This document shows, one piece after another, positions 2,836 to 18,402 of a stretch of 32,000 nt of DNA (positions are counted from its first letter, which is position 1; each line of letters begins with the position of its first letter). The DNA is from Trichlorobacter lovleyi SZ (GTDB lineage: Bacteria; Desulfobacterota; Desulfuromonadia; Geobacterales; Pseudopelobacteraceae): assembly GCF_000020385.1 (NCBI RefSeq), contig NC_010814.1:600001-632000 (forward strand), in the 5' to 3' direction. The notes beneath the pieces were generated by a model. It was given only the letters and a program-made list of their open reading frames with translations. It was not told the DNA's origin and did no database searches. Both the position numbers and the translations under genes were made by a program.

Positions 2836-3795
2836 ATGCCAACCACGACACGCCACCCCAACCAGCTTGATACAGAAGAAGCGCTGGCATTATTGAAACA
2901 ACTGGTCCTGCTGGATGGGCCGGGTTCAGCCAACCTGTCGCGCCTGCAGGTGATGCAACTGCTCTGTGCCCGTAAACGTGCCCTTGCTGCTGCTGATCAC
3001 TCCTTTGATACGCTGCTGTTTGAACTGGGCAAGCAGCTGGATGAACAGATCCGGGATGGCGCCCCTCTGGCAATCAAAAAACGCTTTACCCTGCTGACCG
3101 ACTACTTTCACAAGCTGGAACTGGCCAGCGGCCACCTGAACCACCTGGCCTTCATGGGCAGTTACCAGCTGGATGTCGAGCTGCTGGTGGAACTGAAGCA
3201 CGACATGGAGTGGTTTGAGGAGATCGAGGCCGGTCTGTTCAGCCGTCTGATGGTGGATGATCTGCTCAAGAGCCAGCTGCTGGACAGCTTCGGCCGCCGC
3301 CGGGTCAAGCTGCTGGTGGATGGCCTGGCGCAGATTCAGACCGTCAGGACCCAGAAAAACGACATGAAATTCTTTGATCTGCAGGCGGTGCAGGGGATTA
3401 TCAGCCGTCTACAGCAGCTGGAAAAGGAAGAGCGGCTCTTCATGCTGCTGGCGGAGATCGTGGCGGAACAATCCAGGCTGAATCAGGCCGCCATGAGCAC
3501 CCCCCAGGGGCGGGAGGTGATCCGGCGGGTTACCACCATTGAACTGCGCCAGCGCCACGGGGTGGAGGGTGATATACCGGATGAGCTGTTTCAGAAGGCC
3601 TTTGAACTGGTCAAACTGGAGGCGATCTATTCCAATGCCATCCTGCCGCAGGTGGTACGGGGCAATAGCGCCCTGCGGCAGGATTTCATCAAAAAATCAG
3701 GGCTGGATCTGTTCTACATTGAAGATTTAGAAGATCAGTACTGCAGGCGTAACGGCATTGATCCTGCGTTGATACGGGAGCTGCGGGAACAATAG
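2836..3795 (+). CDS. Hypothetical protein, predicted all-alpha (Leu/Glu/Gln-rich), no recognisable motif
   Basis: 319-aa ORF beginning 6 nt after the upstream stop. Composition matches the neighbouring genes. I recognise no family. Confidence 0.6.
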   Translation: MPTTTRHPNQLDTEEALALLKQLVLLDGPGSANLSRLQVMQLLCARKRALAAADHSFDTLLFELGKQLDEQIRDGAPLAIKKRFTLLTDYFHKLELASGHLNHLAFMGSYQLDVELLVELKHDMEWFEEIEAGLFSRLMVDDLLKSQLLDSFGRRRVKLLVDGLAQIQTVRTQKNDMKFFDLQAVQGIISRLQQLEKEERLFMLLAEIVAEQSRLNQAAMSTPQGREVIRRVTTIELRQRHGVEGDIPDELFQKAFELVKLEAIYSNAILPQVVRGNSALRQDFIKKSGLDLFYIEDLEDQYCRRNGIDPALIRELREQ

Positions 3796-3893: not shown

Positions 3894-4175
3894 ATGATTG
3901 TTTCATTTCATGACAGTGAAACCAGTAAAGTCTGGGAAGGTCAGTTCTCCCGCAAGCTGCCCCATGATATTCAGCAGGTGGCACGGCGTAAGTTGAGGAT
4001 GCTTAACAACGCTGGTCGGGTGGATGATCTACGCATCCCTCCGCAAAACAGGCTTGAGAAGCTTTCTGGTGATCGTGAAGGACAGTGGAGTATTCGGATC
4101 AACGACCAATGGCGAGTCTGCTTCCTCTGGAATGAAGGAACGGCATCGCGTGTTGAGATATGTGATTATCACTGA
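3894..4175 (+). CDS. higB: HigB-type (RelE/ParE superfamily) toxin, plasmid-maintenance killer family
   Basis: 93 aa. MIVSFHD...LRIPPQNRLEKLSGDREGQWSIRINDQWRVCFLWNEG...VEICDYH matches the HigB-like toxin pattern, including the terminal DYH. The toxin-first gene order is typical of higBA. Confidence 0.85.
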   Translation: MIVSFHDSETSKVWEGQFSRKLPHDIQQVARRKLRMLNNAGRVDDLRIPPQNRLEKLSGDREGQWSIRINDQWRVCFLWNEGTASRVEICDYH

Positions 4176-4179
4176 GGTG

Positions 4180-4482
4180 ATGGATATGGCACAACTAGCA
4201 AACGTACATCCTGGGGAAGTCTTGAAAGAGGAATTTCTGGTACCTATGGGGATCAGCCAGTACCGGCTTGCCAAAGAGATCGGGGTGACGGAATCCAGAA
4301 TATCGGCCATTTGCCAAGGCAAACGGGCAGTCGGGGCGGATACTGCTGCCCGTCTTGCCCGTTTCTTTGGAACCACTGCCGCCTTCTGGCTTGGCCTTCA
4401 GGCTGATTATGATACAGAAGAGGTGGAGCGCAACCTGTCTGCCGAACTTGAAAAGATTCATCCCTGGAAGATGGCGGCGTAA
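4180..4482 (+). CDS. higA: HigA-type antitoxin, XRE-family HTH
   Basis: MDMAQLANVHPGEVLKEEFLVPMGISQYRLAKEIGVTESRISAICQGKRAVGADTAARLARFFGTTAAFWLGLQADYD is the classic HigA antidote pattern. ATG 4180 (or 4186) lies 5 nt after the higB stop. The longer 4024 start lies inside higB. Confidence 0.85.
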   Translation: MDMAQLANVHPGEVLKEEFLVPMGISQYRLAKEIGVTESRISAICQGKRAVGADTAARLARFFGTTAAFWLGLQADYDTEEVERNLSAELEKIHPWKMAA

Positions 4483-4811
4483 GGCTGGTACCTGCTTTTG
4501 TGCGTGACCAGCCCGACGGTCTTTTTCGTTGCCCCCGCGTTCAGACGAAAGTAGGGACACACCATTATAATAAATCTGTCATCTTTTCTTCGTGAGCAGC
4601 ACCCTTCCTCTGCCTGATCTGGTAGCACTTCCCTCTTGCGATACTCAACATCTAAGCCCAGTTTTGCCATTGCGGCAGGCTTCTCAAATTTTCTCCCTTC
4701 CTTTCTTGAAATTGCCGAAAAGGGTGGTATTCAAGTATTCGCATAGTGCGAATAAGAACATGCTCTTTCCTCAACCCGGTAGTTGTGGTTGTGACACACT
4801 TGTTAAAATAA

Positions 4812-4835
4812 CAGAAAGTCAAGCCTGACCCCATG
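4812..4835. repeat. Left 24-bp inverted repeat
   Basis: CAGAAAGTCAAGCCTGACCCCATG. Its last 3 nt are the ATG of the truncated transposase ORF. Confidence 0.9.
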
Positions 4836-5387
4836 AGCTACAGTGGTTATACCGACTACGACTGGTATCAGGCCCTGATGGACAGCAGCATCTTCTTTGT
4901 AGCCCGGCTCAAGGACAATGCCTTGGTTGAGTACTTCAAGAAACGTCCGGGCCGCAGGTCACAGGGAGTGCTCACTGATCAGGAAATCAGCCTGAACGGG
5001 ATCAAGGGCAGCCTCCGCCTGGTTCATTTTGTTGCTGAAGATGGAAACGAGTACCGCTTCGTCACCAACGCAAACCACATTCCTGCTGCACTGGTGGCCG
5101 AATTGTACAAGGAACGCTGGCAGATTGAGCTGTTCTTCAAGTGGATCAAGCAGAACCTGAAGATCAAGGCGTTTTACGGCACCTCGGAGAATGCAGTGCT
5201 GACGCAGATCTGGATAGCACTCTGCGTGTACCTGGTACTGGCCTGGCTGAAGTTCATGTCAAAGATCACCATTACGATGCAGCAGATGTTACGGTTATTA
5301 CAGCTCAATCTGTTCGAACGAAGAGACCTGGAAAGCTTATTCAAACCAACGAAAGCATTGCCAAATCCTCAACTGGCGTTGCTTTGA
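4833..5387 (+). pseudogene. IS4-family DDE transposase, C-terminal ~184 aa only (5'-truncated)
   Basis: Contains YKERWQIELFFKWIK, an exact Y-x2-R-x3-E-x6-K (YREK) signature of IS4-family DDE_Tnp_1 transposases. The N-terminal half with the first two catalytic Asp residues is absent. Similarity begins near SGYTDYDW, directly after the left inverted repeat. Confidence 0.8.
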
Positions 5388-5403
5388 AAACTATGGGACA
5401 GCA

Positions 5404-5760
5404 GTGGGACAGCAGTGTCGATGGATATATCTTTTAGCAGCAGTCCCATTCTTTTTGTTTGCGCTGACTGGAATTGCATATGGTGCTTTTCTTTTATACT
5501 TCCTGCCAGCTCTGCTTTGTGTGGTCCAGTTTATACGTCCGACAATTTTTCTTTGGGCAACAATTCTTGGAATGTTTACCTGTGGTTCAGTTGCCTACCT
5601 GTTTGAAACGGGAAAAGACCTTTTAGGAATAATAGCTGGAGAAAGAGATAAAATTTTTCTAAACGCTGCAGACTCGTCTGTATTTACTCTACTACTTGTA
5701 GTTTTAATTTCAATTTCAGTAGCACTAATTCGGTGGAAGCCGGAACTCAGAATAAAGTAA
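5404..5760 (+). CDS. Small hypothetical membrane protein (about 4 hydrophobic helices)
   Basis: 118-aa ORF with a GTG start in clearly AT-richer DNA. Hydrophobic segments are LLAAVPFFLFALTGIAYGAFLLYFLPALLCVV, IFLWATILGMFTCGSVAYLF and VFTLLLVVLISISVALI. No SD-like sequence or family was recognised. Confidence 0.35.
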   Translation: MGQQCRWIYLLAAVPFFLFALTGIAYGAFLLYFLPALLCVVQFIRPTIFLWATILGMFTCGSVAYLFETGKDLLGIIAGERDKIFLNAADSSVFTLLLVVLISISVALIRWKPELRIK

Positions 5761-5787
5761 AAGTCAAAAGCGATATAACTAGAAAGA

Positions 5788-5815
5788 AACACCTGCCCAA
5801 AACCCGGCAGGTGTT
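5788..5815. terminator. Possible bidirectional intrinsic terminator
   Basis: Perfect 10-bp stem AACACCTGCC / GGCAGGTGTT with an 8-nt loop. It is followed by TTCTTTCT on the minus strand (downstream of the FRG gene) and by a weaker TCTTCCTCT on the plus strand. Confidence 0.5.
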
Positions 5816-5842
5816 CTTCCTCTACGTTGGATCAAGAGGAGT

Positions 5843-5866
5843 GCATGGGGTCAGGCTTGATTTTCT
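5843..5866. repeat. Right 24-bp inverted repeat
   Basis: CATGGGGTCAGGCTTGATTTTCTG, the reverse complement of the left copy with one mismatch (4818/5860). Confidence 0.9.
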
Positions 5867-5955
5867 GCTTTTCAAAACTGATCACCAGGGAATAGAAACC
5901 AGAGATACTTCCCGTATTAAAAGGTTAGCTGCCTCTCAAGCTACAATCCCCACCC

Positions 5956-6741
5956 TCAGCGAGGACTGTAGTGTCGTTTCAGCCAGCGGCTTAAACCATC
6001 CAGGCCGGGAAACAGCACCCGTTCGGTGATGTTGGCCTGGTCAAGTTTGTCGCGGATCTCCCATTTTAAGGCAGCCGGTATGATGATCTTGCGGCCGGTT
6101 TCAGGATGGTTGGCCAGCCAGCTGTCCAGCGCCATGCCGGGGGAGGTCATGACCGAGCAGAAGGCAAACTGGTTGACGATCCGGTCATCAATGGAGGGCG
6201 GCTCGAAAAACAGGGCAACGTCATCCCGGGCAATGCCATCCAGCTCGGACAATGAGCTGATCACTTCCGTCAACATCTCTACGGTCAGTACATTCGCGCC
6301 TTCCTGCTCAAGTTTGTGACGCAATACGTCAGGTAATAACTGGTGGGCCTTGACGTAATTCACGGCCCAGACCACCCCGTCTATATCGCTCTTCTCAATG
6401 TTGGCCGTGGCAAAGTGCATGGCGATAAAGGGAGAGTAGGTCCAGTCCAGCAGACGGGTCGGCAGGCCGTAGTGCTGGGCCACCGAGAGCCAGTGCCAGA
6501 TCGAGTCCCGCTCCACCACCCGCTGATGGGCGTATTTCTTGAAGTTGCGCAACAGGTGGTGTTCCAGCTCGGCATAGGGGCCGCCCAGCCGCATCAGGGT
6601 GGTCTCAAGGCGGTAGCTGACATCGGACAGCCCCCTGAAGGCGAAACGTGAGCGGTAGCGCCCCAGATCCTCGTTCCACGAATCGGCAAACAGGGCCTGC
6701 TGCAGTTCATCCCAGGAGTGGACGGTGATGGTTGCGAGCAT
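5956..6741 (-). CDS. FRG-domain protein (uncharacterised family)
   Basis: 261 aa with RFAFRGLSD (the eponymous FRG motif), AQHYGLPTRLLDWTYSPFIAMHFA and DDRIVNQFAF blocks typical of the FRG domain. The start lies 4 nt after the mgsA stop. Confidence 0.75.
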   Translation of the reverse strand: MLATITVHSWDELQQALFADSWNEDLGRYRSRFAFRGLSDVSYRLETTLMRLGGPYAELEHHLLRNFKKYAHQRVVERDSIWHWLSVAQHYGLPTRLLDWTYSPFIAMHFATANIEKSDIDGVVWAVNYVKAHQLLPDVLRHKLEQEGANVLTVEMLTEVISSLSELDGIARDDVALFFEPPSIDDRIVNQFAFCSVMTSPGMALDSWLANHPETGRKIIIPAALKWEIRDKLDQANITERVLFPGLDGLSRWLKRHYSPR

Positions 6742-6745
6742 GGCG

Positions 6746-7213
6746 TCAGGCCTTGTTCTTCAGACGTTGCTTGTACTCCTCATAGTCCTGCATCAGACGT
6801 TCATAGGGGTCGTGCATCAGTGAGGAGGAGATCAGGAAGTCGGCGGTGGAGCGGTTGCAGGCCACCGGAATATTCCAGACCACCGCTATCCGCAGCAGCG
6901 CCTTGACGTCCGGGTCGTGGGGCTGCGGCTCCAGCGGGTCCCAGAAGAAGATCACGAAGTCGATCTCCCCCTGGGATATCATGGCGCCGATCTGCTGGTC
7001 ACCCCCCAGCGGCCCGCTCTGCAGCCGGGTTACCTGCAGGTCAAGCGATTCCGCCAGCAGCGCCCCGGTGGTGCCGGTGGCGTACAGGTCATGTTCCACC
7101 AGGATGGCGCGGTTGTAACGGGCCCATTCGATCAGATCCCGTTTTTTGTTGTCATGGGCCACCAGGGCGATCCGTTTGCGTGACCCCATCTCGATGATGT
7201 TGTAAGAAGGCAT
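6746..7213 (-). CDS. mgsA: Methylglyoxal synthase
   Basis: KRIALVAHDNKKRDL...LYATGTTGALL...SGPLGGDQQIGAMISQGEIDFVIFFWDPLEPQPHDPDVKALLRIAVVWNIPVACNRSTADF is near-colinear with E. coli MgsA. ATG 7213 is preceded by GGAAAGGAAAA. The 7282 start would add 23 non-conserved residues. Confidence 0.9.
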   Translation of the reverse strand: MPSYNIIEMGSRKRIALVAHDNKKRDLIEWARYNRAILVEHDLYATGTTGALLAESLDLQVTRLQSGPLGGDQQIGAMISQGEIDFVIFFWDPLEPQPHDPDVKALLRIAVVWNIPVACNRSTADFLISSSLMHDPYERLMQDYEEYKQRLKNKA

Positions 7214-7309
7214 GCTGTTTTCCTTTCCGGGCACAGGGGCTCTCGGTGCTGTCGCGGTAGCTCCGTTGCGGTAACAGTACACCTTTTCGCTGACCGGTTC
7301 CAGTGGCAG

Positions 7310-9514
7310 TTACCGCTTTGCCAGCCAGATTTCAACCCGGTTGTTGCGCTGCCTGCCCTCTTTGGTACTGTTGTCGGCCACCGGCAGGCTTGAGCCGAAC
7401 CCTTCAGCCGCTGCCACCATGATGCCGCGAGAACGCAGTTCCTGGGCCACCTGACCAACCCGCTGGTGGGAAAGTGCCAGGCTGCTGTGGGGATCGCTGC
7501 TGGCATCGGTGAAGCTGAACAGCAGCAACTGGCGTCCCTGCAGCTCTTTGGTTGAGAGCGCCCGCACCAGCCGGTCCAGGTCGCGATAGGCCTTGTTGTC
7601 AAGCTGGCCGTCGGCGGTGAATTTGACGTTGAGCGAGAGGCGTTCCGCACTGCTTGCCAGCATGCGGTAACGCTCAGGGGCATTGGCAGGGATGGAGGAG
7701 TTGCCCATCCGCACTGAAAGCGGCACAAAGCCGTTTTTTTCCACGATGGCCTGTCCTTCAGGGGAGAGGGCAAATTCGACAAAATCCCTGATCTTCTGGT
7801 TTTTGGGCTGTCCCGGTGTGTAGAGGTAGAGACGGCGGGCCAGACCGTAGTCTTCGGTGGCAACGGTAAAGGGGGTCGGCAGGATCGGCTGGGCACCACC
7901 GCTGATGGCCACCGCCTTGGAGGATTTGACGTAGGGCAGGCCGATGAAGCCGATGCCGTTGGGGTCGCTGGAGACATCCCGTGAGAGCTTGACGCTGTCC
8001 TCGAAGCGCTTGGCCTCTTTGACCAGTTTTTCCTTGTGCAGCACCAGGCTCTTGAAGGTGTCGAAGGTGCCTGATTTGTCATCACGGGCATAGACATGCA
8101 CCGGCGCAGCCTTGGCAGCGCTGTTCAGCTGCTTCCATTCAGGGATCTTGCCGGTGAAGAGCCCCTGGGTATCGGCCATGGTCAGGGTTGCAACCGGGTT
8201 GGTGCTGTTGACGATGACCGCCACTCCGTCCAGGGCCAGGACATGCTCGTTGGCGCGGGAGGTCATGTTCCCCAGCAGCGACAGCCGCTTGACCTCGTCA
8301 TCCTTGATCCTGCGGGATGACATGCCGATGTCGCAGGCGTTGGCCTGCAACCCTTCAAAGGCGGTGGTGGAGCCGTGGGCCTTGATCTCCACCGCCCGGT
8401 TACGGCGTCCCTCCATGATTCCTTCCACCAGCTGTTCTTCGTGGTTTTTGCCCGGTACCCGCCGGATACGGACCGCCCCCTGCTTTTTGAGAAACTCCTC
8501 GGCCAGCGCGGGGGCCAGTTCTGCGCCGATGGTGTTGGAACCCTGCAGCTTCAGGATGATGTCGTAGGAGTTGATCCAGTGGTAGTAGTAGCCGCCGCCG
8601 GTTGCCAGCAGCAGGGCGCTCACCAGCGATGACATCACCAGGCCGCGGCGGCGCCTGAGCCAGGAGTCGGCAATCCCTTCGGCCGGTGCCTTGGGCAGCA
8701 GGGCGACCCGGTGCGCCTCAAGGGCGGCCAGGAACTCGACGCAGCTCTGGTAGCGGTTGGCCGGGTCCTTTTCCAGGGCCTTGTGGACGATGGCTGCCAG
8801 CTCTTCATGGGTATCCGGCGCAAAGCTCCTGATATCCGGGATGGTGCTGTCAAACTGGTTCATCAGGGTATCGACCGCGGATTCTTCGCTGAACGGCAGC
8901 CTGCCGGCCAGCATGTTGTACAGGATCAGCCCCACGGCGTAGATGTCGCTCTGGGGGGTCACGGTAAAGGGGTTCAGGATCTGCTCCGGGCTCATGAAGG
9001 CGGCCTCGCCTCCCTGACCAACCTCCTGCAGGTCTTCGCCGTACTTCAGCAGCGCCACCCCGAAGTCGGAGATCTTCAGCCCGCCGTTGCGGTCCAGCAG
9101 GATGATCGCGGTGGTCAGGCCACGGTGGATCACCCCTTTGTCATGGGCGAAGCGCAGCCCCTGCAGCAGCCGTACCGCATAGTGCAGGGCAATCTGTTGC
9201 GGAAAGGGACCATTATGTTCGATCATCCGGTCCAGGGCAGCGCCGTTATAGTATTCCATCACCAGCCAGAACCCGCTGTTGTGCTCAAAGAAGTCGGTGG
9301 CCTGCAGGATGTTGGGATGCACCATCCCGGCCAGCAGCTTGGCCTCGTTATAGAACCGCTCCCGGTATGATTCGGTGCCCGGCAGCTTCGGGGTCAGGGA
9401 TTTCAGCAGGAAACGCTTGCCCAGCAGGATATGTTCGGCCATCAGCAACGCCCCTTTGCCGTAGGGGGCCGCCCCTTCGATGCGATAGTGATACAGCATG
9501 GTTCCCTTTTCCAT
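7310..9514 (-). CDS. Hanks-type Ser/Thr kinase-like (predicted pseudokinase) - TM - PstS-like periplasmic binding domain - OmpA-like domain
   Basis: 734 aa.
- Kinase fold, aa ~6-265: FLLK, NEAKLL, DFG and SPE are present, but the catalytic loop reads HRGLTTAI instead of HRDLKPxN.
- TM segment, aa ~291-314.
- PBP_like_2/PstS-type domain, aa ~320-600: GSNT, GSTTA and R-x3-SGT (ARDDKSGTF).
- OmpA-C-like end: GFGSSLPVADNSTKEGRQRNNRVEIWL. Confidence 0.85.
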   Translation of the reverse strand: MEKGTMLYHYRIEGAAPYGKGALLMAEHILLGKRFLLKSLTPKLPGTESYRERFYNEAKLLAGMVHPNILQATDFFEHNSGFWLVMEYYNGAALDRMIEHNGPFPQQIALHYAVRLLQGLRFAHDKGVIHRGLTTAIILLDRNGGLKISDFGVALLKYGEDLQEVGQGGEAAFMSPEQILNPFTVTPQSDIYAVGLILYNMLAGRLPFSEESAVDTLMNQFDSTIPDIRSFAPDTHEELAAIVHKALEKDPANRYQSCVEFLAALEAHRVALLPKAPAEGIADSWLRRRRGLVMSSLVSALLLATGGGYYYHWINSYDIILKLQGSNTIGAELAPALAEEFLKKQGAVRIRRVPGKNHEEQLVEGIMEGRRNRAVEIKAHGSTTAFEGLQANACDIGMSSRRIKDDEVKRLSLLGNMTSRANEHVLALDGVAVIVNSTNPVATLTMADTQGLFTGKIPEWKQLNSAAKAAPVHVYARDDKSGTFDTFKSLVLHKEKLVKEAKRFEDSVKLSRDVSSDPNGIGFIGLPYVKSSKAVAISGGAQPILPTPFTVATEDYGLARRLYLYTPGQPKNQKIRDFVEFALSPEGQAIVEKNGFVPLSVRMGNSSIPANAPERYRMLASSAERLSLNVKFTADGQLDNKAYRDLDRLVRALSTKELQGRQLLLFSFTDASSDPHSSLALSHQRVGQVAQELRSRGIMVAAAEGFGSSLPVADNSTKEGRQRNNRVEIWLAKR

Positions 9515-9543
9515 TACTCAGAACTCCTTGCTCTTGTAGTTGG

Positions 9544-12500
9544 TTATGCTTCTGCCGGCAGGGTGCCAAGCACCACTCGGGGCGCCTCGTAACTGTCTTT
9601 AACCGCCACCGACGAGCCCCTGACCTTCTTGGCGGTCTTTTTGACCTCGCTGGCCATGGAGGCCAGCTGGGCATAGGAGCTGATCTGCAGCTGCCCGGTG
9701 CTGATCACCGCCACTGAAAGCGACAGCAGGCTGAAGGTCTCCAGCTCACCCTTGCGGTTGAAGGAGGTGTAACAGCCCTTGGCGTAGTCGCTGGAACCGT
9801 GCAGCAGCGGCAGCCGTGCGTCAAATTCGGCGATCACCTGGCGGGATAGGGCGGCGGCGTAGCCGGGGCCGGTGATGATGATGAAGTCGTCACCGCCGAT
9901 ATGTCCGCAGAAGTTCCTGGCCTGCTTGCCCTGCAGCAGCTCATCGGCGTGAAATTTCAGGATATCCCCCACCACCTGGATCACCATGTCGCCCCGCTCA
10001 AAGCCGTAGAAGTCGTTGTATGGCTTGAAGTGGTCAATATCGATGTAGGCGATGTCGAACGGCATGCCGGACTCCAGCCGCCGGGTGGTCTCACGCTGGA
10101 TACTCTCGTTGCCCGGCAGGCCGGTCAGCGGGTTGGCCCCCTTGGCCAGCTTCAGGTTCAGGGCGGTGATCGCCTCCACCAGGGTGCGGACATCCAGAAT
10201 GCCCCGGTAGACGCCGCGCCTGGCAACGCAGATGTTCTCCAGCCGCATGGTGCCAAAGTTGCCGTGCAGCGCCTGGGCCGCCTCTTCAATACTGGCGTCA
10301 GACTCAATCACCAGCGGCACCGGCTGCATCAGGTCGCGTACCTTTTTGGAGTGGTTGATATGAAATGCGTAGCCGATCCGCCCCACAATCTGCTCTTCGA
10401 TGAACTCGGAGCGGTTCAGTACTCCCGCTACCCGGTGCTGATCCACCACCGGCAGTACCTGCAGCCGTTTGTCGGTCTGAAATCGCTCCAGGGCGGTGTT
10501 CAGACGGTCAGCCGGTCTGAGCGGCTCGATATGCAGGGTTATGTCGGCAACGGTCTGCAGCGAGCGATCATCCTCTTCCTGGGGTACTGGCATGGCTGCC
10601 GGAGGGGTGAGTTCCTGCCCGATCTGTTCAGGCTGCGGGTCAGACGGCTCACCGGCAAGCAGTTGCGCGCCATTCAGCAAAAAGAGTTCAAATGCCTCAC
10701 GCTGCATCGGTTTGCCAAAGTAGTAGCCCTGCATGGTGTCGCAGCCAAGTTCCTGCAACAGTTGGTGCTGGCTGGGGGTCTCCACCCCTTCTGCCGTTAC
10801 CTTGAGGTGCAGTGAGCGGGCCATGGCAATGATGGCAACCACAATCGCCCGGTCATCGGGGTTGCTGTCCAGCTCGTTCACAAAGGAACGGTCAATCTTG
10901 ATCCGATCCACCGGCAGGTGTTTCAGATAGGTCAGGGACGAATAGCCGGTGCCAAAGTCGTCAATGGCCAGTTTAACCCCCAGCTCCTTCAGCCTGAAGA
11001 TCTGCTCGGTGTTTTCATTGGAATGTTCCATCAAGAGCGATTCGGTCAGCTCACAGCAGAGTGCATCAGGTGGCAACCCCACCATCTGCAGTTGACGGGC
11101 GACCCGCTCTGCAAACTGGCGGTCCTTTAGCTGGCGGGTCGAGACATTGACGGCAACAGTCAGGTGGGGATAGCCCTGTTCCCGCCACTGTTTACAGTTC
11201 TGCAGGGCCAGTTCCAGCATCCGGTCTCCCAGCTGCACAATGGCGCCGTTGGCCTCAGCCACCGGAATAAACTTGTCCGGCCCCACCAGCCCCAGGGTGG
11301 GGTGCTGCCAACGGGCCAGTGCTTCCATCCCGACCAGTTTTTTGCCGTCCTGGCTGAACAACGGCTGATAGCAGGCAAAGAACTCCCCGGCCCGTAAACC
11401 CCGCAGGATGCTTGATTCAATCTGCATCTGTTCCCTGACCGCCTGGTTCATCTCTTCTGCATAGAACTTGAAGCCGCTTTCACCGGCAATCGACTTGGAC
11501 TGCGCCTGGAGCTGCGCCAGGTGGGCATGCTGCAGCAGCACCTCGCCGCTGCGTCCGTCACCGGGAAAGATGGCAATGCCGATATGGGCGTTCAGCTGAA
11601 ATTCGGCGTCATGCAGGCTGAACGGCTCATTGATGGCATCAAGCAGTTTGGTGATGACCGGCAGAATATCCCGTTCGCTGCCGCTCTTGGGCAGCAGGAT
11701 GCCGAATTCACCCTTCTGCAGCACCGCGAGGGTGTCGGTCTCGCGCAGGACATCCTGCAGCCGGTCGGCCACGCTGCGCAGCAGCTCGTCACAGTCGTCG
11801 CCACCCCGTGCGCTGATCGCACCGGGGCAGCGCCCCAGCACCAGCTTCAGCACCGACAGGGCCTGCTCTTCGCGGCTGCTGATGGCCAGCAGCTGGGCCA
11901 GACGGTCGCTGAGCAGCTTGTGGTTGGGCAGGCCGGTGATGGCGTCATAGCGGGTCAGCTCTTCCACCTTGCGGGCGGCCTGCTTCAGCAGGGTGATATC
12001 CTCCAGAAAGATGATGGTGCAGGAGTCTCCTTCAAACAGGATCCGGTGGGCAGAAATCGACCCGGTCAGCAGGGAGCCGTCCTGACGCCGCAGGGTGACC
12101 TCCAGTCCCTGAACCGCGCCGTTGCTGCGGATCTGACGGATCAGGTCCAGCCGTTCCGAACTGTGTTCCCAGAGCTTCAGGTCGCTGTCACTGTGTCCCA
12201 CAATGCTGGCAACCGCGTAGCCGGTCATAGCGGCAAAGCGCTGGTTGACCGACAGGATCCGGCGGTCCTGGTCCCGTACCACTGCAATACCGTTGGGAGA
12301 GGCATGAAAGGCCCTGATGATCAGCTCATGGGAGGATGAATCGTTTCGGGTAAAGCGCCGGATCAGCAGGTAGAGCATGGCCGCCGTGATCAGCAGCAGC
12401 CCGGCCCCTGCGGCAATATGTGTCAGGTATGACAGCCCTTCCGGCAGATTGAGTTGCCGTTCAAGCAGCCCGGCCGAGATGGTCCAGATGCCGCCGAACA

Positions 12501-12654
12501 GCAGGAAGGTGAGGGTGATGCTGCGGGCGGTCAGGGGCAAAACCCGGCCGAACAGCAGCAGCTTTGCCTGGCGGCCCGGTATGTTGGCCGGTTTGATAGC
12601 GTCATCCGGCAGCCACTGTCTTCCTGCTATCGGGTGCTGCGTAACGGTATGCAT
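9544..12654 (-). CDS. Membrane-anchored PAS - degenerate GGDEF - EAL - CBS pair - GGDEF(GGDDF) c-di-GMP signalling protein
   Basis: 1036 aa with two N-terminal TM segments and a PAS domain (aa ~110-225).
- GGDEF-like domain 1 has QKGEF at aa 313-317 and lacks the DxDxFK block.
- The EAL domain carries all signatures: EAL 444-446, NVS, ELTES, DDFGTGYSSL, KIDRSF, AEGVET, QGYYFGKP.
- CBS pair, aa ~700-830.
- The C-terminal GGDEF has IDIDHFKPYNDFYGFERGD and GGDDF at aa 920-924. Confidence 0.9.
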   Translation of the reverse strand: MHTVTQHPIAGRQWLPDDAIKPANIPGRQAKLLLFGRVLPLTARSITLTFLLFGGIWTISAGLLERQLNLPEGLSYLTHIAAGAGLLLITAAMLYLLIRRFTRNDSSSHELIIRAFHASPNGIAVVRDQDRRILSVNQRFAAMTGYAVASIVGHSDSDLKLWEHSSERLDLIRQIRSNGAVQGLEVTLRRQDGSLLTGSISAHRILFEGDSCTIIFLEDITLLKQAARKVEELTRYDAITGLPNHKLLSDRLAQLLAISSREEQALSVLKLVLGRCPGAISARGGDDCDELLRSVADRLQDVLRETDTLAVLQKGEFGILLPKSGSERDILPVITKLLDAINEPFSLHDAEFQLNAHIGIAIFPGDGRSGEVLLQHAHLAQLQAQSKSIAGESGFKFYAEEMNQAVREQMQIESSILRGLRAGEFFACYQPLFSQDGKKLVGMEALARWQHPTLGLVGPDKFIPVAEANGAIVQLGDRMLELALQNCKQWREQGYPHLTVAVNVSTRQLKDRQFAERVARQLQMVGLPPDALCCELTESLLMEHSNENTEQIFRLKELGVKLAIDDFGTGYSSLTYLKHLPVDRIKIDRSFVNELDSNPDDRAIVVAIIAMARSLHLKVTAEGVETPSQHQLLQELGCDTMQGYYFGKPMQREAFELFLLNGAQLLAGEPSDPQPEQIGQELTPPAAMPVPQEEDDRSLQTVADITLHIEPLRPADRLNTALERFQTDKRLQVLPVVDQHRVAGVLNRSEFIEEQIVGRIGYAFHINHSKKVRDLMQPVPLVIESDASIEEAAQALHGNFGTMRLENICVARRGVYRGILDVRTLVEAITALNLKLAKGANPLTGLPGNESIQRETTRRLESGMPFDIAYIDIDHFKPYNDFYGFERGDMVIQVVGDILKFHADELLQGKQARNFCGHIGGDDFIIITGPGYAAALSRQVIAEFDARLPLLHGSSDYAKGCYTSFNRKGELETFSLLSLSVAVISTGQLQISSYAQLASMASEVKKTAKKVRGSSVAVKDSYEAPRVVLGTLPAEA

Positions 12655-12709
12655 GGTTGGTTCCTCTATCAGGCTGCTGGAAAACTACTGCGGAGCCCGT
12701 CAGCCGCTG

Positions 12710-14953
12710 TTACGCTGCTGCGGCAGTTCTGATCGGGATACTGTGCAGCGCATCAAAGACCGGGCTGCGGTACTGTTCCGGCGCTGTTGGTGCCGCTGCG
12801 GCAGGCAGCGGGTCGTCATACCGGAACTGGTTCAGCTCGGCCTGCAGTTCCTGCGAGATGGCAGCCAGGTGGATCGATTCATCCGAGATTGCCGCGGCAG
12901 CCTGCAGGGTTTCCCGCAGGGTGGTGTCAATGGCCAGGATGTCGTTGCTGATCTGGCTGGAGGTGGCCGACAGCTCCTCAGTGGCGGTGGCGATCTGCTG
13001 GGTCATCCCCTGCAGTCCGTCAACACTTTCAACAATGCTGGCCAGGGCGCAACCGGCCTCTTCAGAAAACTCTACCCCCCGGGTGACCCGTGTCAGGCTC
13101 TGCTGCATCGCTTCCACGGCCTTGCCGGTGTCCCCCTGGATCGCCGACAGCTTCCCGGCAATCTCGACCGTGGCCTGCTCGGCACGGCGGGAGAGGTTGC
13201 GGACCTCGTTGGCCACCACGGCAAAGCCAAGGCCGTGTTCTCCGGCCCGGGCCGCTTCAATGGCGGCGTTCAGCGCCAGCAGGCCGGTCTGGTCCGTGAT
13301 ATCCCTGATGGTCTCAAGTATCTCGCCGATCTGTTGTGAACGCTCGTGCAGGCTGGCTATGGTGGTTTGGGATTCCCCGACCGATTCGGCAATCGCCTGA
13401 ACCTCGGCAATGGTACGGTTCACCACTGCGGCACCGTTTTGGGCGGTCTGCCGGGCCATGCCGGCGGAACCGGCGATCCTGGCCGTGTGCTGTGCCACAT
13501 CGGCCACGGTCTGGGACAGCTGACTGCCTGCCGTGGCAACCTGGCTGACCCGTTCGCTCTGTTCCTGAACCTGGCAGGTGATCAGGTTGACGGTGCCGGA
13601 AAGCTCCTGCGAGGTGCCGGCCAGGGTGCCGGCGGTTCCGGCGATCGCCCCGACAATCCGCCTGAAGGAGCTGATCAGGCTGTTAAAGGCGTTGATGGAC
13701 TGGCCGATCTCATCGTTGTTCAGGACCGTCACGCTGCGACGCAGGTCACGGCTCTCGGCGATCTCGCCGATGGTGCTCTGCAGCTGGCCGAGCGGCTTGC
13801 GGATGATCATGGCCACCAGCCAGTTCAGGGCCAGCACCAGGATGCCGATCAGCAGTGCGCCCCCCAGCATGATCGCAGTCCGCCGGTGCGACGTGGCATC
13901 CATCGCCTCGACAAAGTTCTGCTGTTCGCTGGTGGTGGCAGTAACCTGTGCCTCGCTCTGGCGGGCCTGTTCAAGGGTAACCTGCCTGATCTGCGCCACG
14001 GTCGCCTCCACCTGTCCCATGCTGGCCAGCACATTGCGCTGGGCTGCGGCGATCCGCCTGATCGCCGCGCCTGCCCGGCCGGCACCGCTGCCGATCTGTT
14101 CAATGGCATCCCTGACCACGCCACCGCTTTTGACCGACATGACTTCAGCTTCAGCCTGCTTCAGGCTCTTGCCGATTCTGGCCTGTACGGTGCCGATCTC
14201 TCCGGCCAGCCTGTCCAGCTCTGCTGCCGAGCTGCTCAGCATGATCATGCGGGCCTTGGCGTCCAGCAGGCGCAGGTCGATATGGATGCTGTCCACCGCC
14301 TCAACCGCTGCCATGACCCGTTTGTTGATCTCCATGTCGTTTTCAACACCGTTGCGGTAGTTCTGCACCTTTTCCGCCAGGCTGGCATTTTCGGCCAGCC
14401 CGGTGACCGAACCGCCCTTCAGCGCCTGTTCAATATCCCTTGAAGAGGATTGGGCCCGCCGCGCAGCCGTGCTGCGTAGTCCGGAGATGACATCGCGAAT
14501 CCCCTCCAGTGACTTTTCCGCCGCTCTGATGGAACCGCTCAGATTGGTTGCCTCGGCCTTGAAGATCTCCAGGCTGGTGAACTTGTCCTGCAATGCCGCC
14601 GCCACCTGCTGCTCAAGGGTTGCAAAGGCGGAGACATCCAGCTGCACCCCTTTCAGCTCCTGGATCTCCTTGCTCAGTTGATCAAGCCTTTTGCGGCGTT
14701 CCTCCATTACAGCGGTCTGCTTCTGTAATTCCCGTGGGTCTTCCAGCATGCCGGTTTGCAGCAGGTCACCGGAGAGCCGCTCCACGGTCTGCTGAAACTG
14801 CAGCATCTTGACCTGCAGCGGGGTGGAGCGGGTGGTCAGCTCCCGGATAGTGCCCTGGAATCCTGCGATGGTGTAGTAGCCCAGCAGCACGACAGCAGCA
14901 AAGCCGACAAAGGTTATCAGGCTGTTGATCAATAGTTTCCGGCGGATGGTCAT
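12710..14953 (-). CDS. Methyl-accepting chemotaxis protein with a large helical periplasmic sensor region and HAMP
   Basis: 747 aa. TM1 is aa ~7-30, followed by a ~340-aa helical ectodomain and TM2 at ~365-390. A HAMP domain follows, then the conserved hairpin LALNAAIEAARAGEHGLGFAVVANEVRNLSRRAEQAT. Confidence 0.92.
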   Translation of the reverse strand: MTIRRKLLINSLITFVGFAAVVLLGYYTIAGFQGTIRELTTRSTPLQVKMLQFQQTVERLSGDLLQTGMLEDPRELQKQTAVMEERRKRLDQLSKEIQELKGVQLDVSAFATLEQQVAAALQDKFTSLEIFKAEATNLSGSIRAAEKSLEGIRDVISGLRSTAARRAQSSSRDIEQALKGGSVTGLAENASLAEKVQNYRNGVENDMEINKRVMAAVEAVDSIHIDLRLLDAKARMIMLSSSAAELDRLAGEIGTVQARIGKSLKQAEAEVMSVKSGGVVRDAIEQIGSGAGRAGAAIRRIAAAQRNVLASMGQVEATVAQIRQVTLEQARQSEAQVTATTSEQQNFVEAMDATSHRRTAIMLGGALLIGILVLALNWLVAMIIRKPLGQLQSTIGEIAESRDLRRSVTVLNNDEIGQSINAFNSLISSFRRIVGAIAGTAGTLAGTSQELSGTVNLITCQVQEQSERVSQVATAGSQLSQTVADVAQHTARIAGSAGMARQTAQNGAAVVNRTIAEVQAIAESVGESQTTIASLHERSQQIGEILETIRDITDQTGLLALNAAIEAARAGEHGLGFAVVANEVRNLSRRAEQATVEIAGKLSAIQGDTGKAVEAMQQSLTRVTRGVEFSEEAGCALASIVESVDGLQGMTQQIATATEELSATSSQISNDILAIDTTLRETLQAAAAISDESIHLAAISQELQAELNQFRYDDPLPAAAAPTAPEQYRSPVFDALHSIPIRTAAAA

Positions 14954-14982
14954 GGCACGTCTTCCTCTCTGTCTATGGCGAA

Positions 14983-15016
14983 ACAGAACAGTAACAGGCG
15001 ACTGTTACCGTTCTGT
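14983..15016. repeat. 15-bp-arm inverted repeat in the MCP / zinc-ribbon divergent region
   Basis: ACAGAACAGTAACAG - GCGA - CTGTTACCGTTCTGT, with 14 of 15 positions complementary. It lies 30-63 nt upstream of the MCP start codon. Confidence 0.85.
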
Positions 15017-15181
15017 GACGGCCGGGAAAAATGTCTGTGGCGACCCGGATAAGCTGTGTTCGGGGCCTCCGGTAGTTTGTTGCAGACTCTTTGGAAACCC
15101 GACACCCAGTTGTCATTTTTTGGCGCTATGGTCTGGCAAACGATAAGTACATGCCAATCAAGAGGCAGGAGGACGACTGCT

Positions 15182-15373
15182 ATGAGAACACGAACCCACG
15201 ACGACTACTATGCCTGGACCTGTGACTGGTGCGACAGCGAGAACCGGACCCTCTGGGTGCGGGTGGCTCACGGTGATGTGGCCTGCGGAGCCTGCCACCG
15301 CACCACCAGCTTTCCGACCTCAAGTGTTGCCCTGACTGCCGGGCAGCAGCCGATGCTGAGCGGCCAGTGTTAG
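15182..15373 (+). CDS. Small zinc-ribbon protein (CxxC...CxxC)
   Basis: 63 aa, MRTRTHDDYYAWTCDWCDSENRTLWVRVAHGDVACGACHRTT... AGGAGG lies 9 nt upstream of ATG 15182. Confidence 0.55.
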   Translation: MRTRTHDDYYAWTCDWCDSENRTLWVRVAHGDVACGACHRTTSFPTSSVALTAGQQPMLSGQC

Positions 15374-15384
15374 AGAGGTGGACC

Positions 15385-15480
15385 ATGTTTCTGTTACGGA
15401 TTTTGAGCATGAAGCGGGAGTTTGACCTGATTGACCAGCAACTTGAACGTTTACGCCGTTTGGCGGGCCGTAAGGCCTGA
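15385..15480 (+). CDS. 31-codon ORF (MFLLRILSMKREFDLIDQQLERLRRLAGRKA), possible micro-protein
   Basis: Not in the supplied track because it is under 60 aa. ATG 15385 is preceded by GAGAGGTG. The ORF fills the gap between the zinc-ribbon ORF and the hydrolase gene. Its basic amphipathic helix is the only feature. Confidence 0.3.
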   Translation: MFLLRILSMKREFDLIDQQLERLRRLAGRKA

Positions 15481-15497
15481 GATCGGGGAGATCATCC

Positions 15498-16580
15498 ATG
15501 AAGCAGTTGTTGAGCAGACACCTTCAGCCGTTAACTGAGCGCCATCCGGCCCTGATGAACATGGCCACCGCCACCGCCGGGTTTTTGCGTTCGATAGCCA
15601 TCAAGCCGTACAGGCAGCGCCACCGTCCACGGGAGCTGGCGCTGTGGGAGCGTTATCACAGTCTGCATGCCGTGCGTTGTCAGGTCTATCGTGAAAAGTC
15701 TGCCGGTGGACGTCCTACCATTGTGGTGGCCGGTTTTGTGCCGGATGCCACCGAGGTGGTGGAGTTTCAACGTCCGCTGCTGCGCAGCCACGGCAGCATC
15801 TATTACCTCAACTACCCGCGTAACGGTTTCAGCCACGAACTGTTTGAGGCGCAGCTGGCCGACCTGATTGATGAGCTGAGTCTGAAGGGAGAGCGGCCGG
15901 TGCTGATGGGGGTCAGCTTCGGCGCCGGACTGGTGGTTGATTTTCTGCGGCGGGCCTCGGAACAGCTGCATGACCGTCTGCGCGGCCTGCTGCTGGTCAG
16001 CCCGGTACTCTGCACCGCCGACCTGATCCGGCCCGACAACCAGCGCAACGGCGGGGTTCGGATGCTGGAGTCAAACCTGCGTAAGATATTGAAGGCCGAC
16101 CCAAATGATGAGAGCGATCTGAACCGGCAGCTGGAGCGGGCGCGGCGCTGTTTTCAGGCCCTGTTTGAGGCAGGGGCGGAAAACCGCAGCCTGACCACCC
16201 GCCACCTGGCCATCCGGCAGCGGATATTCGGGGTGCTTGAGCATACCTCCAACCTTGGCGGCTATCAGCGGGTGCTGGCCTTGCGCAGCTTTGCCGAACC
16301 GGCTGCAGGCAGGACCATCTTTGGCGGACCGACCCTGATCATGCTGGCCGAGGATGAGCAGAGCATTCTGGTGCCGGGATCGCCCACCCTGCAACTATGT
16401 GCCGATCATGCCGCCCTGCGTTCGGTCTTCCCCGAAGCCAGGGCCTGTCTGATCGCCTCAAACAATGATGCCGACCCGGTGGCCCATGCCTCGCTGATCT
16501 TTCATCAGCACTGCTACAATCCGCGCATGGAGCAGTGGTTGCAGAAGCTGCATAACCAGCCGCTCCTGGCGGTGGTGTGA
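15498..16580 (+). CDS. Alpha/beta-fold hydrolase
   Basis: 360 aa with the nucleophile elbow G-V-S-F-G (VLMGVSFGAG). An upstream GGGGAG serves as the ribosome-binding site. Confidence 0.7.
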   Translation: MKQLLSRHLQPLTERHPALMNMATATAGFLRSIAIKPYRQRHRPRELALWERYHSLHAVRCQVYREKSAGGRPTIVVAGFVPDATEVVEFQRPLLRSHGSIYYLNYPRNGFSHELFEAQLADLIDELSLKGERPVLMGVSFGAGLVVDFLRRASEQLHDRLRGLLLVSPVLCTADLIRPDNQRNGGVRMLESNLRKILKADPNDESDLNRQLERARRCFQALFEAGAENRSLTTRHLAIRQRIFGVLEHTSNLGGYQRVLALRSFAEPAAGRTIFGGPTLIMLAEDEQSILVPGSPTLQLCADHAALRSVFPEARACLIASNNDADPVAHASLIFHQHCYNPRMEQWLQKLHNQPLLAVV

Positions 16581-16702: not shown

Positions 16703-16815
16703 CGACTACCTGATATATGCCGCCTACCTGCCCGGTATGTCTCGGTCGCTGCGCTCCGGGCGCCTGGTATACGGCCTTCCTCATACGTTTTCAGTTTCAG
16801 TTCAAAGGAGCACCA

Positions 16816-18402
16816 TTGAAGTTTCCTGTTTCCCTGTTGTCTCTGCCGCTGCGCGCCGCCGCCGATATCCGTGCCCGGCGCTTTTTACGCAAAGATCCGC
16901 TGGGCAGCCAGCGTGAACTGCTGCCCCGCCTGCTGCAGAGGGCGGCAAAAACCCGCTTTGGCCGCGAGTACGGCTTCAATTCTCTGGCCAGCCTGCCCTT
17001 TGAAGTCTGCTATCAGCAGTTTCAACAGCAGGTGCCGATCCGTACCTATCGTCAGTTCTGGGATGACTGGTTTGCAGCCTGCCTGACAACCACCCCGCAG
17101 GGACAGCAGTTGCGGCTGCAGGATCAGAGCTGGCCCGGACTGATCCCCTGGTTCTGCGAGACCTCCGGCACCACGGCGCCAACCAAGTTCATTCCCTTTA
17201 CCCATGAGATGTTCAGGATGAACCAGCGGGCAGCCCTGGATATGCTCTGCTGTTACCTGGCAGCTGAACCGGGCAGCAGGGTGCCGGAGGGCAAGATCCT
17301 CTACATGGCCGGCAGCACCCGGCTCAAGCAGATGGGGCCGGGTGTGCTGGCCGGTGACATGAGTGCCATTACCCTGCAGCAGCGGCCCGCCTGGCTGAAC
17401 CCGTTTGTAGAACCACAGGAGCCGCTGACCTCGGCCCCGTGGGATCAGCGGCTGGACGGCATGGCCCGGCTGCTGCTGGCAGACCGGAAGATACGGATCA
17501 TCTCCGGGGTGCCGCCCTGGATTTTACTGCTGCTGAAGCAGGTGGAATCCCTGGCCGGTCGTCCGGTGCGTGAGGCGTTGCCCAGTCTGGAACTGATCAT
17601 TCACGGTGGTACCAGCATGGCCCCCTATGCTGCAGAATACCAACGGCTGCTCCCTTCTGGCGGCCCCCGCTTTCTGGAACTGCTGCCTTCATCCGAGGCG
17701 TTCATGGGCTTTCAGGTGCAGGGTGAGGCAACCATGCGGTTGACACCGTTTTACGGCTCGTTTTTCGAGTTTGTGCCGATTGAACAGCTGGATGAGAGCG
17801 GCGCACCGCTTTCTGACGCCCAGGCTGTACCGCTGGCCGGGGTGGTGACCGGTCAGCGGTACGCCGTGATTCTTTCCACCTGCTCCGGGCTGTGGCGCTA
17901 CCATATCGGCGATACCCTGCGCTTTCTGGATGCCGACCGGTTCCATTTTGAATTTACCGGCCGGGATAAGTTTCTGGATCGCTTTGAGGAGAAGGTGACC
18001 CAGACCGAGGTGGAACAGGCGGTGGCTATGCTGAACAAGCGGCACGACGGTCTGGTGCGGGAGTTCATGGTGGGGGCAGATATTGGCGGTCGTTGCCACC
18101 ACTGGGTACTGGCCTGCCGGGGCAGTGCGCTGCTGCCGGACCAGGCCTCACGTTTGCTGGACGACCAGCTGCGTAGCGCCAATGCCGATTATGACACCTT
18201 CCGGCAACAGGGAAGGATTAACAGTCCCCGTGTACTGCTGGTGTCGGAACAGCAGATCTATGACTGGTCGGCAGAGGTGCGTGGCAAGCTGGGCGGCCAG
18301 AGCAAGATCCCCCACATTGATCCGACCCTGACCGGTGAGCTGGTCAAAAGCCTGTCCGGCTATGCCTGTAACAATAGTTTCCAATCTTTTGCCTCCCCGT
18401 AA
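16816..18402 (+). CDS. GH3-family (acyl-adenylate-forming amido-synthetase-like) protein
   Basis: FCETSGTTAPTKFIPFT (GH3 nucleotide-binding motif) and GLWRYHIGDTLRF are present. TTG 16816, preceded by AAAGGAG at 6-nt spacing, is preferred over ATG 16717, whose extra 33 aa look non-native. Confidence 0.75.
   Translation: MKFPVSLLSLPLRAAADIRARRFLRKDPLGSQRELLPRLLQRAAKTRFGREYGFNSLASLPFEVCYQQFQQQVPIRTYRQFWDDWFAACLTTTPQGQQLRLQDQSWPGLIPWFCETSGTTAPTKFIPFTHEMFRMNQRAALDMLCCYLAAEPGSRVPEGKILYMAGSTRLKQMGPGVLAGDMSAITLQQRPAWLNPFVEPQEPLTSAPWDQRLDGMARLLLADRKIRIISGVPPWILLLLKQVESLAGRPVREALPSLELIIHGGTSMAPYAAEYQRLLPSGGPRFLELLPSSEAFMGFQVQGEATMRLTPFYGSFFEFVPIEQLDESGAPLSDAQAVPLAGVVTGQRYAVILSTCSGLWRYHIGDTLRFLDADRFHFEFTGRDKFLDRFEEKVTQTEVEQAVAMLNKRHDGLVREFMVGADIGGRCHHWVLACRGSALLPDQASRLLDDQLRSANADYDTFRQQGRINSPRVLLVSEQQIYDWSAEVRGKLGGQSKIPHIDPTLTGELVKSLSGYACNNSFQSFASP

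Follow-up and report, generated by a model that had tools for sequence, protein, structure and literature searches.

A predicted pseudokinase joined to PstS-like and OmpA-like periplasmic domains in Trichlorobacter lovleyi, a possible wall-referenced phosphate receptor

In a 32,000-nucleotide window of the Trichlorobacter (Geobacter) lovleyi SZ genome (contig NC_010814.1, positions 600,001 to 632,000), the minus-strand gene at 7310-9514 encodes a 734-residue single-pass membrane protein (ACD94338.1 / WP_012468694.1), referred to here as the receptor. Comparison with its relatives indicates that the cytoplasmic kinase-like head of this protein is an old pseudokinase maintained by selection and not the product of recent decay. 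The head is joined through one transmembrane helix to a PstS-like binding domain and an OmpA-like domain. Tentatively, and short of calling it probable, we propose that the whole serves as a receptor for periplasmic phosphate that is referenced to peptidoglycan and has a non-catalytic kinase-like output, for which ligand, coupling, partner and output are what we infer. Beyond the anatomy already described in an earlier sequence-only reading of this DNA, the analysis adds an ancient, monophyletic pseudokinase clade, a modular periplasmic cassette, a clade-specific candidate partner of the TIGR04442 family and a conserved chemoreceptor neighbor.

Domain anatomy and the pseudokinase head

The open reading frame is intact, with 734 codons, an ATG start and an AAGGAG sequence 8 nucleotides upstream, and its product is identical to the database entry, which is labeled only 'protein kinase domain-containing' or 'substrate-binding domain-containing'. 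All of its parts are encoded on the minus strand. The cytoplasmic Hanks-type kinase-like domain covers residues 1-272 (8699-9514), as judged from Pfam, Foldseek and substitution rates. It has the kinase fold: Pkinase (PF00069) matches residues 32-256 with an E-value of 8.5e-39 and 134 bits against a cutoff of 31.7, and Foldseek matches the head to the kinase domains of PknB, Stk1 and PknA with target TM-scores of 0.86-0.88 at 28% identity. Hydropathy reveals one hydrophobic segment (residues 291-309), preceded on the cytoplasmic side by RRRR, and this segment is the core of the single transmembrane helix at residues 289-315 (8570-8650). An AlphaFold2 model built on 72 relatives (mean predicted local distance difference test score, pLDDT, 87.4) has the same lone helix, with the first strand of the binding domain following it directly; residues 153-168 (activation segment) and 274-292 (juxtamembrane) are disordered in the model. 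The periplasmic Venus-flytrap domain of the PstS family occupies residues 317-600 (7715-8566; PBP_like_2 at 371-586, E-value 2.5e-26), and the C-terminal OmpA-like domain residues 623-732 (7319-7648; OmpA, PF00691, at 636-724, E-value 4e-9, 37.1 bits against a cutoff of 27.2). The Pfam search and the structure prediction thus agree with the sequence-only reading, which had described a kinase fold, one membrane helix, a binding-protein domain and an OmpA-like C-terminus ending in NNRVEIW (724-730). A fold search with the whole protein gave kinase matches only, so the binding and OmpA-like domains were compared with the PDB by sequence.

The residues of the head were examined in alignments of 110 full-length database relatives together with PknB, and then of a curated set of 72. 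Residues expected of an active kinase are missing from two places and present in three. The catalytic loop reads HRGLTTAI (residues 130-137; 9104-9127), with the Asp replaced by Gly132, the Lys by Thr134 and the Asn by Ile137, and the glycine-rich loop reads EGAAPYGKG (13-21). The β3 Lys (K38, in FLLK), the αC Glu (E57) and the DFG motif (D150-F151-G152; 9059-9067) are retained, as are SPE at 175-177 and the residues of the structural salt bridge. The same retained and lost motifs had been noted in the sequence-only reading, including the loss of both the catalytic Asp and the Asn. Additionally, Ser and Thr are absent from the activation segment of the T. lovleyi protein (VALLKYGEDLQEVGQGGEAAFM).

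These losses are shared widely. The HRD Asp is absent from all 38 relatives at 44% identity or more, being Gly in 31, Asn in six and Glu in one. None of the members of this 38-protein group has a GxGxxG loop, where active relatives have GxGGxG; the Lys and Asn of the catalytic loop are mostly substituted, and GFG stands in place of DFG in 21 of the 38. What does not vary across the group is K38, E57, H130, R131, F151, G152, the Ser-Pro-Glu motif, D190 of αF and R254 between αH and αI, and therefore the structural skeleton of the kinase fold is kept. In the 34 proteins that share the architecture but are more distantly related, HRDxKxxN, GxGGxG, the Lys, the Glu and DFG are all present. They are 37-43% identical to the receptor overall and 25-32% in the head, and come from Acidobacteriota, Myxococcota and Verrucomicrobiota (Pyrinomonadaceae/Blastocatellia, Archangium, Vitiosangium, Pendulispora, Polyangiaceae and Verrucomicrobiota). 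When the kinase region alone was used for an exhaustive search, the best matches were proteins with multiple kinase domains, among which a single representative of the same family stands out (P0026).

The 38 pseudokinases form one clade in neighbor-joining trees, whether these are built from the kinase region or from the periplasmic region. The clade splits into three sub-clades, namely HRG with DFG (to which the T. lovleyi protein belongs), HRN with DFG, and HRG with GFG. The open reading frame is intact in every member. Pairwise ratios of nonsynonymous to synonymous substitution rates (dN/dS) against three orthologues are 0.08, 0.17 and 0.18 for the head, and 0.14, 0.16 and 0.21 for the binding domain. 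Because the loss of the HRD Asp is shared and monophyletic and dN/dS is low, the head is best described as an old and selected pseudokinase; a conserved loss of catalytic residues under purifying selection is also what an operational definition of a pseudokinase asks for, and both are seen in these comparisons. The sequence-only reading had left room for a recent decay product, should orthologues turn out to carry a canonical HRD. No orthologue with HRD was found down to 44% identity, and the loss is monophyletic with the domain under purifying selection.

There are 63 head positions at least 90% conserved within the clade, about half of which are specific to it. The clade-specific residues include R51, Y55 and L61 in αC; Q71, F75 and F76; N181 and P182; and P226, D227, I228 and R229. 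They cluster in αC, in the β4-β5 region, in the stretch after SPE and around 226-229, an arrangement that would fit an interaction surface retained on the head.

The periplasmic cassette

A sequence search of the PDB found that the nearest solved structures to residues 315-632 are phosphate-binding proteins. The best are Clostridium perfringens PBP-1 (4Q8R/4GD5; E-value 1e-24), followed by Pseudomonas aeruginosa PstS (4OMB/4PQJ), Borrelia burgdorferi BB0215 (4N13) and Streptococcus pneumoniae PstS. In PBP-1, phosphate is held by nine residues: S11, T12, S13, S41, S59, R125, S129, G130 and T131 (PMC5381212). A HMMER alignment pairs S41, S59, R125, S129, G130 and T131 with S382, S400, R477, S481, G482 and T483, the last four of which lie in the ARDDKSGTF motif (476-484; 8063-8089). 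The remaining three (S11, T12 and S13) were placed by motif and model topology on S326, N327 and T328, as the model places the GSNT sequence (325-328) where strand 1 ends and helix 1 begins, much like GSTS in PBP-1. Eight of the nine positions are identical, the exception being Thr12, which corresponds to Asn327. This Asn is invariant among kinase-headed relatives. The genome's transporter PstS has Asp at the equivalent position (GSDT), and therefore this first-loop position varies among real PstS proteins. Pocket residues are invariant or nearly so in the 72 kinase-headed relatives and in 75 relatives with mixed heads, and the motifs GSNTIG, HGSxTAF, CDIGMSSR, ARDDKSGT(F/Y) and GIGFIGL are near-invariant among them. 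By comparison with the phosphate-ligand residues of PBP-1, the predicted anion pocket thus appears to be retained.

The sequence-only reading had called this a full PstS-family domain with the R-x3-S-G-T motif also found in a separate PstS in the window. The fold, the motif and the comparison stand: the other protein is a genuine PstS (18426-19451; TIGR02136, 265 bits) with the motif as GRNSASGTY, and the two domains are 32% identical over 251 residues. What did not hold is full family membership, as TIGR02136 matches residues 366-599 with 186.4 bits, below the trusted cutoff of 206.6, and over profile positions 60-295 only. In the model, the binding fold starts at about residue 317 and not 371, and helix 1 is separated from strand 2 by an inserted 20-residue β-hairpin (347-367); it is because of this insert that the hidden Markov models start late and the family score falls below its cutoff. 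By the curated cutoff and by gene context, the domain would not be classed as a PstS transporter subunit.

The C-terminal domain aligns with the OmpA-like domains of TssL, YiaD, ArfA, YfiB and OprF, with TssL and YiaD being the best matches among PDB sequences. Solved OmpA-like domains carry a conserved Asp (in a TD motif) and Arg (in LSxxR) that contact the peptide stem. Both have a counterpart in the receptor, D670 (in FTD) and R685 (in LSxQR), and both are nearly invariant in 75 cassettes. With the family score above threshold and both motif residues present, the domain is predicted to bind peptidoglycan. The GFG sub-clade differs (P0032-P0062; loci L004, L017-L019, L094 and L095): Trp replaces the Arg (SEQWT for LSxQR), matches to OmpA are weak or faint, and the rest of the protein is conserved. 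In this sub-clade, peptidoglycan binding may be altered or lost.

The cassette formed by the binding domain and the OmpA-like domain is much more widespread than the pseudokinase. Proteins combining a kinase domain, PBP_like_2 and OmpA make up most of the 120 best database matches, and a scan of one genome per species found relatives of the cassette at at least 545 loci, most of them matching only residues ~318-733. By these numbers, the architecture is no peculiarity of this genome. PBP_like_2 and OmpA are both present in 75 of 75 extracted open reading frames, and one hydrophobic segment always lies between head and cassette. Within the pseudokinase clade, the transmembrane segment ends only about 14-20 residues before GSNT. 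The heads are diverse: Pkinase in 15 of the 75, DUF4388 in six, Response_reg in four and PilZ in one. Other proteins have a Cys-rich N-terminus resembling a zinc ribbon, as in many Acidobacteriota, or no more than a signal peptide or anchor, as in Pseudomonas. Possible Roadblock-like N-termini were seen at L037 and L042 in a survey of loci L020-L093. A head-less cassette in Acidobacteriaceae (L025) has dnaG, rpoD and mutS2 as neighbors, which give no functional hint, and a head-less Pseudomonas cassette (L078) has an Exo_endo_phos gene directly upstream. No characterized member had been known to the sequence-only reading. Our literature searches aimed at the architecture or the protein (combinations of pseudokinase, PstS and OmpA, and Pfam and protein accessions) likewise returned nothing on either, and the architecture appears to be widespread yet uncharacterized.

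Gene neighborhood and candidate partners

A gene of the TIGR04442 family adjoins the receptor gene in all three sub-clades. In the window it lies on the plus strand (2836-3795) and encodes a soluble, all-α protein of 319 residues (NCBIfam, 207 bits against a cutoff of 150), which covers only the C-terminal half (331-607) of the 608-position family model and is 44% identical to the copy at L006. The gene, whose product is typically ~310 residues, stands tail-to-tail with the receptor gene in L001 and L006, and is co-directional with it, overlapping or nearly abutting the stop codon, in L004, L005, L094 and L095. By tblastn, it is present at nine of ten distinct pseudokinase loci, with the exception (L096) ending 1.1 kb downstream; at about 70 loci whose heads are active kinases or of other types, the same search did not find it. 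No hydrophobic segment is seen in the protein, and AlphaFold2 predicts an all-α fold (pLDDT 85.9) for which a search of the PDB gave no significant match (best E-value 0.12). Its homologues are restricted to Geobacter-type bacteria and none is annotated. We regard this protein as the best candidate for a cytoplasmic partner of the pseudokinase head.

In the window, the two genes are separated by a low-GC stretch (4000-6750; GC 0.479 versus ~0.60). It contains an HTH_3 gene (4024-4482), a DDE transposase fragment (4833-5387) and an FRG-domain gene (5956-6741, minus strand), and resembles an insertion by which the TIGR04442 gene became separated from the receptor-mgsA block.

The receptor gene is the third in a same-strand run of four. 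The run begins with a methyl-accepting chemotaxis protein (MCP) of 747 residues (12710-14953, minus), continues with a membrane protein of the order PAS-GGDEF-EAL-CBS-GGDEF (9544-12654, minus) and, after the receptor gene, ends with the methylglyoxal synthase gene mgsA (6746-7282, minus; NF003559, 226.6 bits); the gaps are 55, 29 and 27 nucleotides. From the MCP gene to mgsA, a scan of 5800-15500 found no terminator-like site on the minus strand, with counts below the expectation from shuffling, and an operon spanning these genes is weakly supported. The MCP has an unusually large periplasmic region of ~330 residues between transmembrane segments 5-23 and 357-375. Each of the three sub-clades has orthologues of 740-747 residues, 40-74% identical over ~713 residues, no more than 5 kb from the receptor gene. 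An orthologue of the PAS-GGDEF-EAL-CBS-GGDEF protein is found at the corresponding position in L006, L014 and L015. The orthologue at L006, from a related Trichlorobacter (4457-7882), has an extra C-terminal low-molecular-weight phosphatase (LMWPc) domain. Throughout the Trichlorobacter sub-clade, mgsA is directly downstream of the receptor gene. Its product, MgsA, is inhibited by phosphate.

Other neighbors also concern phosphate. In the window, pstSCAB-phoU and a GH3 gene similar to OlsH lie 7-9 kb from the receptor gene, pstSCAB itself at ~9 kb and on the opposite strand. At L006 the neighbors are ppx-gppA, CHAD and His_Phos_1 genes, and an alkaline phosphatase gene adjoins the pseudokinase receptor gene in L095 (3311-5748) and L096 (1760-3364), together with a HAD hydrolase. 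Outside the pseudokinase clade, ppk1 adjoins an active-kinase homologue of Pyrinomonadaceae (L010/L011, 9353-11485). Taken together, the gene neighborhoods point to phosphate.

Several features of these regions can be recorded in their own right. Just upstream of pstS, a 360-residue protein with a weak α/β-hydrolase match (15498-16580, plus) precedes a GH3-family protein resembling the lyso-ornithine lipid synthetase OlsH (16717-18402, plus; 345.7 bits against a cutoff of 620), and the pair may serve a phosphorus-free lipid pathway. The same pair of genes is found ~4 kb from the receptor gene in L004/L017, beside His_Phos_1 and CHAD genes. The PstC-like (641 residues; 19592-21517, plus) and PstA-like (530 residues; 21691-23283, plus) proteins are both roughly double the normal size; an additional N-terminal region of ~380 residues in PstC gives weak WD40/β-propeller matches, and its model score of 195.9 is just below the cutoff of 196.45. 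A DAGK_cat/YegS-like gene recurs at L001, L095 and L096.

Proposed function and comparison with known systems

There is a plausible sequence of events by which the receptor could work. Orthophosphate or a very similar oxyanion would bind in the flytrap and close it. With the flytrap presumably held at one end by the membrane helix and at the other by a fixed site on the cell wall, its closing would shift or re-orient the helix. The kinase-like head, which should be unable to transfer phosphate in the usual way since the catalytic Asp, Lys and Asn and the glycine-rich loop are absent, would then act as a conformational switch or scaffold, and its state would alter the binding of a partner. The neighboring chemoreceptor and the cyclic di-GMP (c-di-GMP) enzyme are possible downstream links. 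The sequence-only reading had likewise inferred a wall-tethered oxyanion sensor acting through a dead kinase, which the lost catalytic residues, the predicted pocket, the Asp and Arg of the OmpA-like domain and the phosphate-related neighborhoods make reasonable; the architecture, though, is widespread and not unique.

Several observations weigh against this proposal. With K38, E57 and D150 still in place, the head might bind nucleotide or have weak or atypical catalytic activity. The link to the TIGR04442 protein is one of synteny, which does not imply physical interaction. The geometry between domains is uncertain in the AlphaFold2 model (predicted template modeling score, pTM, 0.59). The variant GFG sub-clade suggests that wall anchoring may not be essential to the function of the clade. 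The sub-cutoff TIGR02136 score, the Asn at one ligand position and the hairpin mean that specificity could differ from phosphate. Finally, receiver-type heads (REC, PilZ and DUF4388) and forms with only a signal peptide fit a periplasmic effector at least equally well.

This last point leads to the first alternative, which we consider unlikely, namely that the cassette itself is the effector, serving in wall-tethered phosphate binding or retention or as a phosphate-dependent link in the envelope, with the head merely anchoring it or regulating it from the inside out in answer to signals in the cytoplasm. At 31 of 71 classified loci (80 sampled), including those of Pseudomonas, the cassette has no head beyond a signal peptide or membrane anchor, and among the other heads are the receiver types Response_reg, PilZ and DUF4388. 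Once overall identity is at or below ~53%, the cassette is also better conserved than the heads (51-63% versus 25-52% identity). However, the head of the receptor is under equally strong purifying selection, and has a conserved surface and a syntenic cytoplasmic candidate partner of its own, which makes it more than an anchor, while the distant relatives couple the same cassette to canonical kinases in the classic layout of a receptor kinase.

Somewhat less likely again is a ligand other than orthophosphate. It could be a different oxyanion or a phosphorylated compound, with arsenate, phosphite, pyrophosphate and an envelope component bearing phosphate as examples. The family-invariant Asn327 in place of the PBP-1 Thr, the hairpin insert at 347-367 and the score below the PstS-family cutoff would all allow this. 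Indeed, PstS proteins of the PBP-1 type are without the Asp that confers selectivity and discriminate poorly against arsenate (PMC5381212). On the other hand, eight of nine positions match a phosphate-bound structure and the ninth also varies in the genome's own PstS (GSDT), and the neighboring genes are those of phosphate and polyphosphate rather than arsenic or phosphonate.

It is improbable that the receptor is a tethered co-receptor whose phosphate-loaded binding domain docks on the large periplasmic domain of the syntenic MCP, as free PstS does on CtpL in P. aeruginosa, with the head in a secondary role. The MCP heads the closely spaced run, has a periplasmic region large enough to stand out and has orthologues near the receptor gene in all three sub-clades, and there is precedent for a phosphate-loaded PstS stimulating a chemoreceptor (PMC4926252). 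Yet the MCP is missing from the flanks at L004/L017, L019 and L094, and docking leaves the strong conservation of the head and the link to TIGR04442 unexplained.

Still more improbable is that the head retains catalysis, either as weak phosphotransfer without the HRD Asp or as another nucleotide-dependent reaction. Some eukaryotic 'pseudokinases' have been reported to carry out weak phosphotransfer, and K38, E57 and D150-F-G are kept in the Trichlorobacter and HRN sub-clades. Against this, the T. lovleyi protein lacks the glycine-rich loop, the catalytic Asp, the loop Lys and the metal-binding Asn, its activation segment has no Ser or Thr, and the DFG Asp is gone from the 21 clade members with GFG, which stay equally conserved. 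A recently decayed kinase gene of no special function is ruled out by the monophyletic loss, shared down to 44% identity, and by head dN/dS of 0.08-0.18.

Returning to the proposed phosphate receptor, a broader version can be stated, which is possible although we hold it with considerable doubt: the cassette would be a general, Pst-independent, direct sensor of periplasmic phosphate in Gram-negative bacteria with interchangeable heads (active kinases, REC/DUF4388, PilZ and zinc ribbons), and in Geobacter-type bacteria the head would long ago have become a non-catalytic switch paired with TIGR04442. In the textbook description, the sensing of external phosphate by bacteria is indirect and relies on PstSCAB transport activity and on PhoU, which act on PhoR. 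A receptor with its own PstS-type pocket would, if the proposal is true, give a direct and transporter-independent phosphate input, carried by a cassette found in hundreds of species across many phyla. The pseudokinase clade would also provide a clear bacterial example of a receptor kinase that has become non-catalytic, with active sisters and a specific candidate partner, in a field where bacterial pseudokinase biology is still thin. Geobacter-type organisms matter in subsurface metal reduction and dechlorination, and in them the receptor could tie phosphate supply to c-di-GMP and chemotaxis.

Several known systems resemble the receptor in part. Much like the receptor kinases PknB and Stk1, it has an N-terminal cytoplasmic kinase fold, one transmembrane helix and a C-terminal extracytoplasmic ligand-binding region. 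It differs in having lost the catalytic Asp, Lys and Asn and the glycine-rich loop, in having a PstS-like and OmpA-like sensor and not PASTA, and in that the sensor is periplasmic, the host being Gram-negative. MviN (Rv3910) of Mycobacterium tuberculosis is a membrane protein of cell-wall synthesis with a pseudokinase domain. In Bacillus subtilis, YukC/EssB is described as a membrane pseudokinase of type VII secretion (PMC9600267). Both place a non-catalytic kinase-like cytoplasmic domain on a membrane protein and use it as a scaffold; their membrane and extracellular parts are unrelated to those of the receptor, and they act in cell-wall synthesis or type VII secretion and not in nutrient sensing, so that the likeness is one of principle only.

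Conserved bacterial Hanks-type domains without catalytic-triad residues have also been grouped in the 2025 preprint 'Atlas of the Bacterial Serine-Threonine Kinases', whose main text describes seven pseudokinase families (CP1, DYD, DLHK, GLW and ActPs1-3), all with the VAIK Lys substituted (10.1101/2025.01.12.632604). All 38 members of the receptor clade keep K38, and the residue lost is instead the HRD Asp, which sets the clade apart from these families as they are described there, and the main text of the preprint mentions no PBP, PstS or OmpA architecture.

On the periplasmic side, the binding domain shares its fold and anion-ligand motifs with the PstS of PstSCAB (TIGR02136; 4GD5/4Q8R, 4OMB and 4N13). 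Unlike PstS, which is free or lipid-anchored, it is fused to a transmembrane helix on one side and an OmpA-like domain on the other, and its gene lies away from pstCAB; it also differs in its score below the family cutoff, its hairpin insert and the Asn at one ligand position. The stators MotB and PomB and the secretion-system anchor TssL, together with YiaD, likewise have one transmembrane helix and a periplasmic region ending in an OmpA-like domain with TD and LSxxR; as stators or secretion-system anchors, they have neither a binding-protein domain nor a kinase-like head. A parallel for signaling through a PstS-type domain is the indirect phosphate chemoreception of P. aeruginosa by PstS and CtpL, in which a free PstS doubles as transporter subunit (PMC4926252). 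Both systems bring a PstS-type domain together with a chemoreceptor, which for the receptor is the syntenic, orthologous MCP; here the domain is tethered, and the interaction with the MCP is hypothetical.

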